Assembly (NCBI GenBank): GCA_963693055.1
Contig: OY843751.1
Coordinates: forward strand, 3,712,001-3,776,000
Direction: 5' to 3'
Origin: a bacterium
Lineage (GTDB): Bacteria > Zhuqueibacterota > Zhuqueibacteria > Residuimicrobiales > Krinioviventaceae
Length of the DNA stretch: 64,000 nt
Shown here: in pieces, positions 31,738 through 35,579 of the stretch
Layout: every line of letters starts with the position of its first letter
How positions within the stretch are numbered: the first letter of the stretch is position 1
Position numbers and translations under genes: made by a program
The notes under the pieces: generated by a model
What the model was told of the DNA's origin: nothing
Databases searched by the model: none
The model's input: only the letters and a program-made list of their open reading frames with translations

Positions 31738-32958
31738 TCAGCTCATAAACTGAGTACGTCTCTGTATTTCTTTATCACTCCAGCTCTCACAACCAGGAAT
31801 CATGTTGCGAACAATGGATTTCACATCGGAACTATCTACAAGCCCTAATCGCAGTGCATGCTTGAGAGGTAAAAAATAATCTTCCGGAAGCACAAGGTAA
31901 TGTGCCTCACATTGCGGATGCGGCAAAGGATGCTTGATAAGACCGGTCATTGCTAAAAAGATTCCAACATAATGGCGATAGATCCCAACATTTCCCGGCG
32001 TCCAAAAATCTTTGGCTGCGGCCTGCAGATCCTGCTCAATTGCCAGCGAACAGGGTTTGCCCATTTTTACAAAATCCCGCCACAGCTTGAATAGTGTTGG
32101 GCTGATTTGAGAAGCACCCAGCAAATAGCCATGCTTTTTCAAATTCTTTCCGTAACGAGCAAGCGCAATAAACCAGTCATTACCAGTAGAAAACTGTACC
32201 CGGTCAGGGGCCACTTGTTCAACAATACGCAAACGATCGATATCATCACAAAAATCATACTGACAAAAGAAATTTGATTTTCTGCTTATCAACGCACTTT
32301 TGTATTCATGAATTTCAGGGGTTTGTGCAATAATAGATTCAATTTCAAAAAGATTAAAATTTGAACCAAATCCCGGTATACCAATATCCAGTTCAAAAAA
32401 AACAAAACCAAAATCGGTAAATTCAGAGACCACCTTGCCAATTTCACGATACGCTTTAATCTTATCATCTGTCGGAGCGTCATACAATCGCTTATCCGGG
32501 ACCGGCATATAACGAATACGGCGCGTGGTTTTACGCACCCGAAGGCCGGCATCAATTTCTTTAATCAGTTCACGGGTTTTACCCGCCACATCTTTGATTT
32601 CAAGATCAAAAGGATTGGTATTAAGCCCAGCTACAACCAGTGGTCGGTCGCTTGCTATATAGTCTGAATGTTCGGTTGCCAGCTCGGCGGTTCGCCAGAT
32701 GAGTCTTTTGGTCAGATCCCAGTCGTTATAAATGGCCCAGGTTGTATCTACATTGGTTGCAGGCACATGGCCTGAGCGCAAAGCGTCAATAACCAGGTTA
32801 TCATAACTCTTCCAGTCAAAATTGCCTTTAGGATCCCACGGCCCATAAAGGGCCGTAGTTCCCAGAATTTCTTTATTACATTGACGATCATACACATCCT
32901 GTATGGTCACACCTGTAACCGGAGCAGATGCTTGTGTCAATGAAATGCCTTTTGTCAT
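31738..32958 (-). CDS. Divergent DapA-like (class I aldolase TIM-barrel) protein
   Basis: NFDWKSY..., PATNVDT, FFEL...FG, EYKSA (candidate Schiff-base Lys), FSTGND, YLLG; start overlaps the upstream stop (TAATG). Confidence 0.6.
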   Translation of the reverse strand: MTKGISLTQASAPVTGVTIQDVYDRQCNKEILGTTALYGPWDPKGNFDWKSYDNLVIDALRSGHVPATNVDTTWAIYNDWDLTKRLIWRTAELATEHSDYIASDRPLVVAGLNTNPFDLEIKDVAGKTRELIKEIDAGLRVRKTTRRIRYMPVPDKRLYDAPTDDKIKAYREIGKVVSEFTDFGFVFFELDIGIPGFGSNFNLFEIESIIAQTPEIHEYKSALISRKSNFFCQYDFCDDIDRLRIVEQVAPDRVQFSTGNDWFIALARYGKNLKKHGYLLGASQISPTLFKLWRDFVKMGKPCSLAIEQDLQAAAKDFWTPGNVGIYRHYVGIFLAMTGLIKHPLPHPQCEAHYLVLPEDYFLPLKHALRLGLVDSSDVKSIVRNMIPGCESWSDKEIQRRTQFMS

Positions 32959-34205
32959 TAAGGAATTACCCTCAAATTATTTTTCTGTAAACGTTCCGGT
33001 TCCCAATTCGCAGGTACGGGTTTGGGATATTTGAAAAAGTCTTTAGATTCAACCGGAGCGCCATTATTGGCAGCACTGTCATACAAGGCTTCAACCTGGC
33101 CCAGAATATTTAAAGCACTGACAGCGTCTTTTTCATATTTCTTACCGGTCAAAATGCAAGTCAAAAAGTCAGACAATTCATAAGCGAACGGATCATGATA
33201 CGGGAGATCCAGATATTCCCAATGATCTCTCCACTCTATCTTTTCACCTACTACTGATTTTTCCCAGCGATTTGCCGGTGCTGTTTCTTTCCACTGTACC
33301 TTAAGTCCGTACAGTCCGAAAATCATGGAACCACCTTCACCATCAACAGTGATCTCTAAAGGCCCAAACTCGGAATTTACACGACGATACCATGACCAGA
33401 TAGAAGTATTGATTACACCACTGGTATGTTCACGTCGAAGCGCAGCATAATCTTCAACATCACAATCGATCACAGTCTTCCCGTCTGTGCTCATTCTTTT
33501 GGGAACAATCAGTCTTGCAGAGGCACTCAGCCGTTCAGTCTCACCAAACAAGGCATTTGATAAATACCCTTCATGGCACATATCCAAAATAATACCGCCA
33601 CCAGCTTCATTGAATACCCAGTTAAAGTCAGGACGTTGACCAGAGAATTCAGCATTGCCTTCAAGTCCGGCACCTACTTCATAGCCAAACAACATCTGGG
33701 CGCTAAGGGGTTTGATTTTTGGCATCAGTTCAATGGCTTTCAACAAACCGGGGGTAGAGATCATGTGATGTACAACACCGTGAGTAAAACCACCTTTTTC
33801 CATGGCTTCAACAATGGCAAAACCATCATCATAATTGGATGCCAGAGGTTTTTCCATAAAACAAAATGTGGTTTTGGAATCCAACAGAGGTAGTGTATCA
33901 AGTACAACCTGGCGACGGATGCCGGTAGAAATTGTACAATGATAAATCTGAACATCCGGATTTTGACTTTTTGCAAAGGCATACGCTTCCGGAAAGTTAT
34001 TATAGTAATGTTTCAGTCCTTTTTCTTCTGCAACAGCTTTAACTTTGTCAAGATTACGGCTCACTCCAATTGGCAAGGGTTTTACAATATCACCGTTAAC
34101 AATTGTTTTTTCATCATTGGCAATACTATTTAAAGCAGTTAATGCAATTTGTCCCATTCTTCCTGTAACACCATGTATAATTACAGGGACAATTATATTT
34201 GCCAT
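32958..34205 (-). CDS. Cytoplasmic Gfo/Idh/MocA-type oxidoreductase
   Basis: IIHGVTGRMG, FMEKPLA, GGGIILDMCH; start MANIIVP with GGAGG RBS. Confidence 0.85.
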   Translation of the reverse strand: MANIIVPVIIHGVTGRMGQIALTALNSIANDEKTIVNGDIVKPLPIGVSRNLDKVKAVAEEKGLKHYYNNFPEAYAFAKSQNPDVQIYHCTISTGIRRQVVLDTLPLLDSKTTFCFMEKPLASNYDDGFAIVEAMEKGGFTHGVVHHMISTPGLLKAIELMPKIKPLSAQMLFGYEVGAGLEGNAEFSGQRPDFNWVFNEAGGGIILDMCHEGYLSNALFGETERLSASARLIVPKRMSTDGKTVIDCDVEDYAALRREHTSGVINTSIWSWYRRVNSEFGPLEITVDGEGGSMIFGLYGLKVQWKETAPANRWEKSVVGEKIEWRDHWEYLDLPYHDPFAYELSDFLTCILTGKKYEKDAVSALNILGQVEALYDSAANNGAPVESKDFFKYPKPVPANWEPERLQKNNLRVIP

Positions 34206-34239: not shown

Positions 34240-35295
34240 TTACAACAAACCCTGACGATAAGCCATTTCAGCATTCAGAATTGAACCACCGGCTGCACCG
34301 CGAATCAGGTTATTTGAAAGTGTTACAAAACGAATAATGTTACCCTCTACCTGCAATCTGCCAACAGAGACAGCCATGCCTGCTGCACGGTCAGGGCTAC
34401 CGGCATTCACATCATAACGATGTTGTGGGCGATCAATTTCAGTACGATAAATAACCGCTTGTTCAGGGGCTGTTGGCAAACCTGCAACTTGTTCTGGTGA
34501 CTTGTAATTCTGAAAGGCCGACAATACTTTATCATAATCCATGTCGTTTTCCATTTCCGCGTGAACAGAGATCAGGTGACCAACTATTGCCGGAACACGA
34601 ATACAATGCGCATGGATTTCCCAATCAGCATCCAAAATATGACTATCATTAAACGTACCACAAATCTTTTTGGTTTCGCTCAACAGTTTAGGTTCTTCAT
34701 TGCCGATATACGGAATAACATTTCCCTGAATATCCATAGCAGACAAACCGGGGTATCCGGCACCAGAGATTGCCTGATAACTTGCAACAACGAGGCGTTT
34801 GATGCCCAAAGGAATAATTGGCAGCAGCGCCATGGTTAATCCTGTGGTTGTACAGTTTGCATTGGTTATGATATATCCCTCGGTATCACTTTGTGCTTTG
34901 GTCAAACCAATATGCTCATGGTTTACCTCCGGTATCAAAATAGGTACATTCTTGTCCATACGATAAGAGCTGGCATTTGAAAAAACCTTGATACCCTGTT
35001 TAGCAGCTTTTTTTTCTATGGTATCTGCAATATCTGCCGGCAAAGCTGAAAAGATCACTTTAATCTCTTTTTCCATCAATACATCAACATCAATAGGATC
35101 AAAAACCAGATCAGTAAAAGTTTCAGGTATACCACCATTAATATGCTCTTTCATCTCGCCCAGTGTTTTACCCGTACGTGCTTCACTGGCACAAACAGCG
35201 CCAAGCTCAAAATAGGGATGACCGTTCAAGAGTTTTAAAAAATGCTGGCCTACAACACCGGTTGCACCCAATACTGCACATTTTACTTTTTTCAT
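34240..35295 (-). CDS. asd: Aspartate-semialdehyde dehydrogenase (archaeal/fungal-like clade)
   Basis: LGATGVVGQ, SNAS..RM...VPILIPEVN, NANCTT, QAISGAGYPG, C.RVP...GH, NLIRGAAGGS; GAGG RBS before ATG 35295. Confidence 0.95.
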   Translation of the reverse strand: MKKVKCAVLGATGVVGQHFLKLLNGHPYFELGAVCASEARTGKTLGEMKEHINGGIPETFTDLVFDPIDVDVLMEKEIKVIFSALPADIADTIEKKAAKQGIKVFSNASSYRMDKNVPILIPEVNHEHIGLTKAQSDTEGYIITNANCTTTGLTMALLPIIPLGIKRLVVASYQAISGAGYPGLSAMDIQGNVIPYIGNEEPKLLSETKKICGTFNDSHILDADWEIHAHCIRVPAIVGHLISVHAEMENDMDYDKVLSAFQNYKSPEQVAGLPTAPEQAVIYRTEIDRPQHRYDVNAGSPDRAAGMAVSVGRLQVEGNIIRFVTLSNNLIRGAAGGSILNAEMAYRQGLL

Positions 35296-35333: not shown

Positions 35334-35369
35334 AAAAAAAAAGCCCACAGTGTAGTTCTCTGCGGGCTT
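35334..35369 (-). terminator. Attenuator terminator upstream of asd
   Basis: AAGCCCGCAG-9 nt loop-CTGTGGGCTT followed by T7, about 38 nt before the asd start. Confidence 0.88.
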
Positions 35370-35391
35370 GGAAATTCTAATGGATATAGTA

Positions 35392-35454
35392 TTATAAAGC
35401 CCAACTCTTTTTAAAAGTCTTTTTCATTGTTTTCTTTTTCATATCAATAGTCAT
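35392..35454 (-). CDS. Leader peptide of the asd attenuator, MTIDMKKKTMKKTFKKSWAL
   Basis: 20 codons (7 Lys, 3 Thr, 3 Met, 1 Ile, 1 Asp) lying between the promoter and the terminator; its 3' end TGGGCTT is complementary to the terminator 5' arm. Confidence 0.82.
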   Translation of the reverse strand: MTIDMKKKTMKKTFKKSWAL

Positions 35455-35478
35455 AATTATCTCTTATATTAGTCATAT

Positions 35479-35507
35479 AAATTACTCATTTCCTGACGAA
35501 ATGTCAA
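35479..35507 (-). promoter_or_regulatory. Sigma70 promoter of the leader-asd transcript
   Basis: TTGACA-17 bp-TAATTT, 24 bp before the leader ATG. Confidence 0.7.
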
Positions 35508-35579
35508 GATTTAATATTGGCTTTTTTGTTTAGGAATTCTTATAATATAGTGGTAACTGTTAAATGGAAATGATCAGTA

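Follow-up and report, generated by a model that had tools for sequence, protein, structure and literature searches.

Enterobacterial thrL controls thrABC through Thr and Ile codons in a short leader open reading frame (ORF), a competing antiterminator and an intrinsic terminator. Attenuation of this kind is textbook biology; the normal sensor for lysine is a riboswitch, and methionine is normally read by way of SAM. In 2004, Vitreschak et al. reportedly predicted that a thrA leader of the Pasteurellales carries codons for Thr, Ile and Met; this thrA leader resembles the asd leader that we describe here in being a predicted multi-amino-acid attenuator, Met included, at a shared aspartate-pathway enzyme, but it is said to lack Lys codons and to act on thrA in Gammaproteobacteria, whereas the asd leader carries Lys codons and precedes asd. 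Attenuation has been described in general terms elsewhere (PMC2659441). The nearest published case that we have seen is SEP5 of Sinorhizobium meliloti, described in the relevant parts of one report as a translated small ORF whose 3′ portion holds six Thr and three Lys codons; it sits in the 5′ untranslated region of a gene termed aspartate dehydrogenase, is conserved only in Sinorhizobium and, according to its authors, may encode a leader peptide (Hadjeras et al. 2023, PMC10117765). Those parts of the report mention no Met codons, RNA switch or starvation test for SEP5, and the likeness to the asd leader is one of description only. A search of the open literature, with subscription papers and supplements outside its reach, found no tested Lys- or Met-codon attenuator.

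The window analysed here, a 64,000-nucleotide stretch of a bacterial genome, contains the only asd found in that genome (aspartate-semialdehyde dehydrogenase, asd_EA type; 34240–35295, minus strand, ATG at 35295; TIGR00978, 404.7 bits against a cut-off of 301.2). Upstream of it, on the same strand, is what sequence comparison indicates is a real, conserved and unannotated regulatory element. A predicted sigma-70-type promoter (35479–35507) pairs a −35 hexamer, TTGACA (35507–35502), with a −10 hexamer, TAATTT (35484–35479), across a 17-nt spacer. The leader ORF (35392–35454; ATG at 35454, stop at 35394–35392) has 20 codons plus the stop and encodes a putative peptide whose first 16 residues are 7 Lys, 3 Thr, 3 Met, Ile, Asp and Phe; its predicted sensor codons 2–14 (35413–35451) specify 5 Lys, 3 Thr, 2 Met, Ile, Asp and Phe. 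Within codons 18–20 lies the antiterminator segment UGGGCUU (segment 2, 35397–35403), which complements the terminator 5′ arm. Folding and alignment place that arm, shared with the antiterminator as its 3′ arm, at 35360–35369 (segment 3), and sequence, folding and alignment place the terminator 3′ arm with its 9-U tract at 35334–35350 (segment 4). The terminator joins 35369–35360 to 35350–35341 in a 10-bp stem with a 9-nt loop (−15.3 kcal/mol), and the nine U occupy 35342–35334. Each of these parts had been named in the original prediction: the promoter and its spacing, the 20-codon ORF with 15 of 16 aspartate-family residues, the 10-bp hairpin and U tract just before asd, and the pairing of UGGGCUU with the terminator 5′ arm all held up. 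A consensus scan listed neither the promoter nor the terminator, owing to its thresholds: the −10 hexamer matches at 3 of 6 positions, and the loop exceeds the limit of 8. The fold z of the whole region is only −2.0. Back to back with the asd promoter, at 35517–35546 on the plus strand, is a promoter-like site (10/12) for a divergent DUF2752 gene.

The asd leader shares with classical ribosome-mediated attenuators a short ORF between promoter and first gene (in 15 of 16 family genomes), end-product control codons beyond base composition (Lys, Thr and Met), an intrinsic terminator with conserved pairing (10-bp stem and nine U) and a predicted, mutually exclusive antiterminator for which ribosome position would be decisive (14/16 leaders versus 2/306 controls, and masked folding). 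From these sequence features, we consider the leader to be a ribosome-mediated transcription attenuator that responds to Lys, Thr and Met, with a probability of roughly 0.8. Its likeness to thrL consists of a short ORF with aspartate-family control codons and an antiterminator opposed to a terminator before an aspartate-pathway gene. The codons (Lys/Thr/Met rather than Thr/Ile), the target (asd rather than thrABC) and the phylum differ, as does this genome's copy in having no 1:2 helix. With a score of 17.3 bits (E 0.92) for RF00506 (Thr_leader) against a gathering threshold of 55, the asd leader is most likely not a member of the thrL family. No Rfam model reached its gathering score in the window, and the leader gave only sub-threshold, terminator-like matches. 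The lysine riboswitch, RF00168, binds free lysine, whereas the asd leader would read tRNA charging; no RF00168 aptamer was found in the window or the leader, and a positive control elsewhere in the genome scored 125.3 bits. The leader has no Rfam T-box match either, and its 105 nt from predicted start to terminator compare with 200 or more for a structured T-box leader.

In the proposed mechanism, scarcity of charged tRNA for Lys, Thr or Met would raise asd transcription. When amino acids are plentiful, the ribosome would reach the last leader codons and cover segment 2, so that segments 3 and 4 would pair and transcription would end in the U tract, about 40 nt short of asd. Stalling anywhere from codon 2 to about codon 14 would instead keep segment 2 exposed; it could then pair with segment 3 ahead of the synthesis of segment 4, giving readthrough into asd. 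Because asd lies apart from both thrA and the lysine operon, which has its own riboswitch, such a multi-input leader would match supply to three branches. The proposal overturns nothing established; the mechanism is textbook and the input set is what is unusual. A Lys/Met-codon leader at Asd would mean that no transcription factor is needed to match a branch-point gene to several end products. As the element spans only about 170 nt and is portable to an Escherichia coli reporter, codon-based Lys and Met sensing is directly testable, and the element is a possible multi-input sensor for amino-acid producer strains.

Chance, or an artefact of A-rich DNA, is rejected as the origin of the leader by genome ranking, shuffles, antiterminator controls and a long-ORF control. 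The complete 6.5-Mb genome has 90,161 ATG-started ORFs of 12–40 codons; for aspartate-family codons the leader ORF tops this list, and no other reaches 15/16 Lys, Thr, Met, Ile or Asp. Ten or more Lys, Thr and Met in codons 2–14 occur in 0 of the genome's 3,456 long ORFs, and base shuffling of these codons in the leader gives a p of about 0.0004. We pooled the sensor codons of 14 leaders (184 codons), leaving out a near-identical sister genome and a Phe-rich leader, and compared them with 5,000 stop-free base shuffles. Lys was found 58 times against 38.7 in the shuffles, Thr 37 against 16.1 and Met 21 against 2.6, while Asn fell to 7 against 19.5; Ile (11 observed, 16.8 expected) and Asp (2 observed, 4.9 expected) were not enriched. 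A fixed window of eight codons counted back from segment 2, which is independent of start-codon choice, agrees, with Lys at 43 against 29.0, Thr at 26 against 10.4, Met at 12 against 1.3 and Ile at 5 against 8.8. The two other reading frames contain 25 and 9 stops across the leaders. Taken singly, nine of the 14 leaders are significant (p < 0.03) and five are not (p 0.09–0.50), and all of these p values overstate the significance because kin are not independent. The claim that one leader integrates all branches is thus too wide: conservation singles out Lys, Thr and Met, and Ile and Asp, which show no enrichment over the 14 leaders, are unsupported as inputs. The leaders are Lys-dominated by count (58/184 sensor codons), but Met and Thr show the greater enrichment once base composition is taken into account.

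The Lys codons invite another reading, that the attenuator is real but senses Thr and Met only, with lysine sensed solely by the riboswitch and the Lys codons serving as an A-rich, unstructured spacer. The Lys excess is indeed the smallest of the three, at just 1.5-fold; 45 of the 58 Lys codons are AAA, out-of-frame readings still yield 32 and 30 Lys, and a lysine riboswitch is already present in 15 of 19 family genomes. Yet the in-frame ratio of Lys to Asn is 58:7 rather than the 38.7:19.5 of the shuffles, and the AAG share among the Lys codons (13/58) equals that of the genome (20,491/95,360). In most leaders, tandem Lys codons lie a few codons ahead of segment 2, the sensor stretch of two leaders holds Lys and Met with no Thr, and the genome's His, Trp and Phe/Tyr leaders contain 0–1 Lys although they too are AT-rich. 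Moreover, it is an established principle that any translated Lys run should stall the ribosome under Lys starvation. We regard the Thr- and Met-only reading as unlikely and retain Lys among the predicted inputs.

The element is conserved within its family. Of 19 genomes sampled, 16 have an asd match; the terminator is present in all 16 and the whole layout (promoter, short ORF, GGGC segment and complementary terminator) in 15, and a TTGAC(A/T)-like hexamer is followed by TAnnnT at exactly 17 nt in 16/16 leaders checked. Thirteen of the family's leaders lie immediately before asd and belong to the Lys/Thr/Met type, one is Met-rich and precedes a longer operon and one is Phe-rich. The sixteenth genome (locus L017, genome G012) keeps terminator and promoter but lacks the ORF and segment 2, a deletion as judged against the sister locus L019 (G002) that may be a natural loss or an assembly error. 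The leader peptides do not align, and it is their composition and position that are kept. Two further metagenome loci have Lys/Thr/Met leaders. In genus g27 of another order, three genomes (L210, L298 and L299) carry leaders rich in Thr, Met, Lys and Ile, also with Cys codons, before asd; the terminator sequence there differs, and an aspartokinase-like gene follows asd in the one locus that reaches that far. Farther afield, none of 13 family-f2 genomes with sequence upstream of asd showed the element there, and a check of 40 more loci from the class and phylum failed to find it in 38. Its presence in family f4 is doubtful: in three genomes there, no clear leader accompanies a terminator-like hairpin, in one an ORF extends through the terminator, and in one the terminator has no ORF. 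Two locus scans returned mostly distant asd genes (about 40–44% identity), none of which had a leader with terminator under a simple filter applied to the 450 nt upstream.

Conservation extends to the predicted RNA switch. An exact 5-nt complement of the terminator core lies 25–62 nt upstream in 14/16 leaders, as opposed to 2/306 control terminators (the other terminator-like hairpins of this genome), and the other two leaders keep a 4-nt core of the complement. Segment 2 is kept 35–55 nt upstream of the terminator 5′ arm in 16/16 aligned leaders. In the terminator alignment, 95.6% of cells are paired, a value reached in 0/500 shuffles, and two pairs have changed on both sides. One genome has the same position altered in all three segments, from GGGC/GCCC/GGGC to AGGC/GCCT/AGGC. 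Antiterminator covariation is otherwise thin, with mostly invariant pairs, and its scores do not rise above shuffles because the core is invariant apart from that genome; one antiterminator pair has a two-sided change. Comparison with relatives, which the original prediction had named as a check, bears out conserved leader ORFs rich in Lys, Thr and Met; compensatory changes are few.

We modelled ribosome position by folding nascent RNA that ends before segment 4, with the ribosome covering 12 nt past the A site. The antiterminator forms with P of about 0.9 for stalls up to codon 14–15 and not after, and in this copy, as in most relatives, the switch point falls just past the Lys/Thr run. The attenuator reading, its segments and the predicted ribosome-position logic are borne out by masked folding and by relatives. 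Full-length RNA folds to the terminator at every modelled ribosome position, so the switch must be kinetic and co-transcriptional. A 1:2 pause/protector helix holds segment 2 (P 0.98–1.0) in 7/16 leaders; it is absent in this copy (P 0.06) and in the four leaders of the closest AT-rich group, from which it follows that an untranslated leader in this genome is predicted to read through.

This copy is among the weakest of its kind, which raises the question of whether the switch in this genus has decayed to a mostly constitutive terminator that damps asd, with relatives keeping a working attenuator. Its antiterminator has 6–7 bp, and the 7-bp duplex (−10.6 kcal/mol) is matched or exceeded upstream of 19% of the 306 control terminators, so the antiterminator of this copy carries weight through conservation. 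Decay would also fit the segment 2–3 distance, the shortest at 35 nt, the missing 1:2 helix, the weak Shine–Dalgarno sequence of this genome's leader, the relative that has lost the ORF and the equilibrium advantage of the terminator, whose extra pairs could displace the antiterminator. But the sensor stretch of this copy is among the purest runs of control codons (11/13), the two changes in the leader ORF relative to a same-genus sister genome are both at synonymous third positions, and the switch point falls where expected. Decay in this genus is very improbable in our estimation, and we continue to read this copy as a working attenuator.

A different switch for the same helices, whether a ligand, an RNA-binding protein or the nascent peptide, would leave the codons incidental or reporting a general translation rate. 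It could accommodate the Phe-rich exception (L009, G008; 136–49 nt upstream of asd), which has the same layout with four Phe codons and one Lys and is mismatched to the pathway. Against it, no Rfam model matches at its gathering score, no conserved sequence or fold exists upstream of segment 2, and composition, which is kept when the peptide sequence is not, tracks pathway and operon content. We hold this explanation to be extremely unlikely.

The operons behind the leader bear on control by codon content. HcyBio (PF01837) makes homocysteine from aspartate semialdehyde. It occurs in 2/125 genomes of the class and was not found in the genome analysed here (G000); it directly follows asd in one of the two and, in the other, is the first gene on the next contig, where the downstream genes are the same. 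Three operons that start with a PRK04334-family gene and asd (L221:2620–2900, L014 and L044:2520–2900) carry a Met-rich, Thr-poor version of the attenuator, two of them in the HcyBio genomes and one at a metagenome locus without HcyBio in its stretch. At the start of the operon, all three share the promoter and switch of the other leaders, but their Met codons come in twos or threes and Thr is nearly absent: their 24 window codons include 8 Met, 1 Thr and 3 Lys. The differences from the other leaders are 8/24 versus 12/112 for Met and 1/24 versus 26/112 for Thr (Fisher p 0.009 and 0.045). A shift of the codon mix with the homocysteine gene, seen in the sequences of three possibly related loci, is no more than suggestive. 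We lean slightly toward a broader reading, a tunable family of aspartate-pathway attenuators. At the branch-point gene, a single leader would respond jointly to the charging of lysyl-, threonyl- and methionyl-tRNA, beside a free-lysine riboswitch on the lysine operon, and evolution would retune its codon mix to operon content, toward Met and away from Thr where a gene for homocysteine synthesis is added. If true, it would provide a working codon-based lysine and methionine sensor.

Two genes behind asd on the minus strand are likely co-transcribed with it: a Gfo/Idh/MocA-family oxidoreductase (32958–34205), which in relatives lies directly behind asd or later in its operon, and a gene for a 406-aa protein with no Pfam match (31738–32958), which overlaps the preceding gene's stop. 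A model of the 406-aa protein (pLDDT 91) matches DapA/N-acetylneuraminate-lyase barrels, and its family has near-invariant Lys220 and Tyr150, which we take to be the Schiff-base Lys and catalytic Tyr of the barrel fold. The family occurs in 16/61 genomes, the majority of them with a high-scoring DapA as well; its gene usually lies within the asd operon in these 16, often alongside an aspartokinase gene and a distant PEP-carboxykinase-like gene. We considered the oxidoreductase and the 406-aa protein as a DapA/DapB replacement and rejected this, because a canonical DapA (333 bits) is encoded in a full lysine operon. Also rejected was an Asd feeding an archaeal-type aromatic pathway, considered for the Phe/Tyr codons: in this genome, which that check covered, there are a DAHP synthase and a DHQ synthase and no PF01959 match.

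The lysine operon lies away from asd, starts with an ArgE/DapE-family gene and is of the lysC-dapB-dapA-dapF-dapL-lysA type, the gene names being presumed in part from reading of the sequences. The lysine riboswitch that served as the positive control precedes it (G000:C1:3409729–3409909; L035:11730–11910, minus strand). No SAM-I riboswitch was found in this genome. A genome-wide scan for a small ORF and terminator before a gene returned 82 candidates. These include leaders rich in His, Trp (two) and Phe/Tyr, each with a terminator and each ahead of matching biosynthetic genes (G000:C1 near 2919258, minus; 1871583, minus, and 4335485, plus; and 2710122, plus, respectively); we presume these target names from reading of the sequences, except for the DAHP synthase, which was identified computationally. 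Ile/Leu/Val-rich ORFs precede two acetolactate synthase genes (near 4693600 and 4695800, both plus). Leader attenuation thus appears to be in wide use in this organism. A neighbouring protein has named relatives that carry the label candidate division KSB1, and the asd element offers a first view of amino-acid control in this uncultured lineage. thrA occupies a third place in the genome, apart from asd and the lysine operon, and in 17 family loci, the majority with thrA inside an operon, the 330 nt that precede the gene showed no Thr/Ile leader. About 230–130 nt upstream of thrA in this genome (L234; G000:C1:3535384, minus), a promoter-like site is followed by a terminator-like hairpin; the stretch lacks a Thr/Ile leader and matches no Rfam family. 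A like hairpin occurs in L236 and L237, and site and hairpin together are a possible control element.
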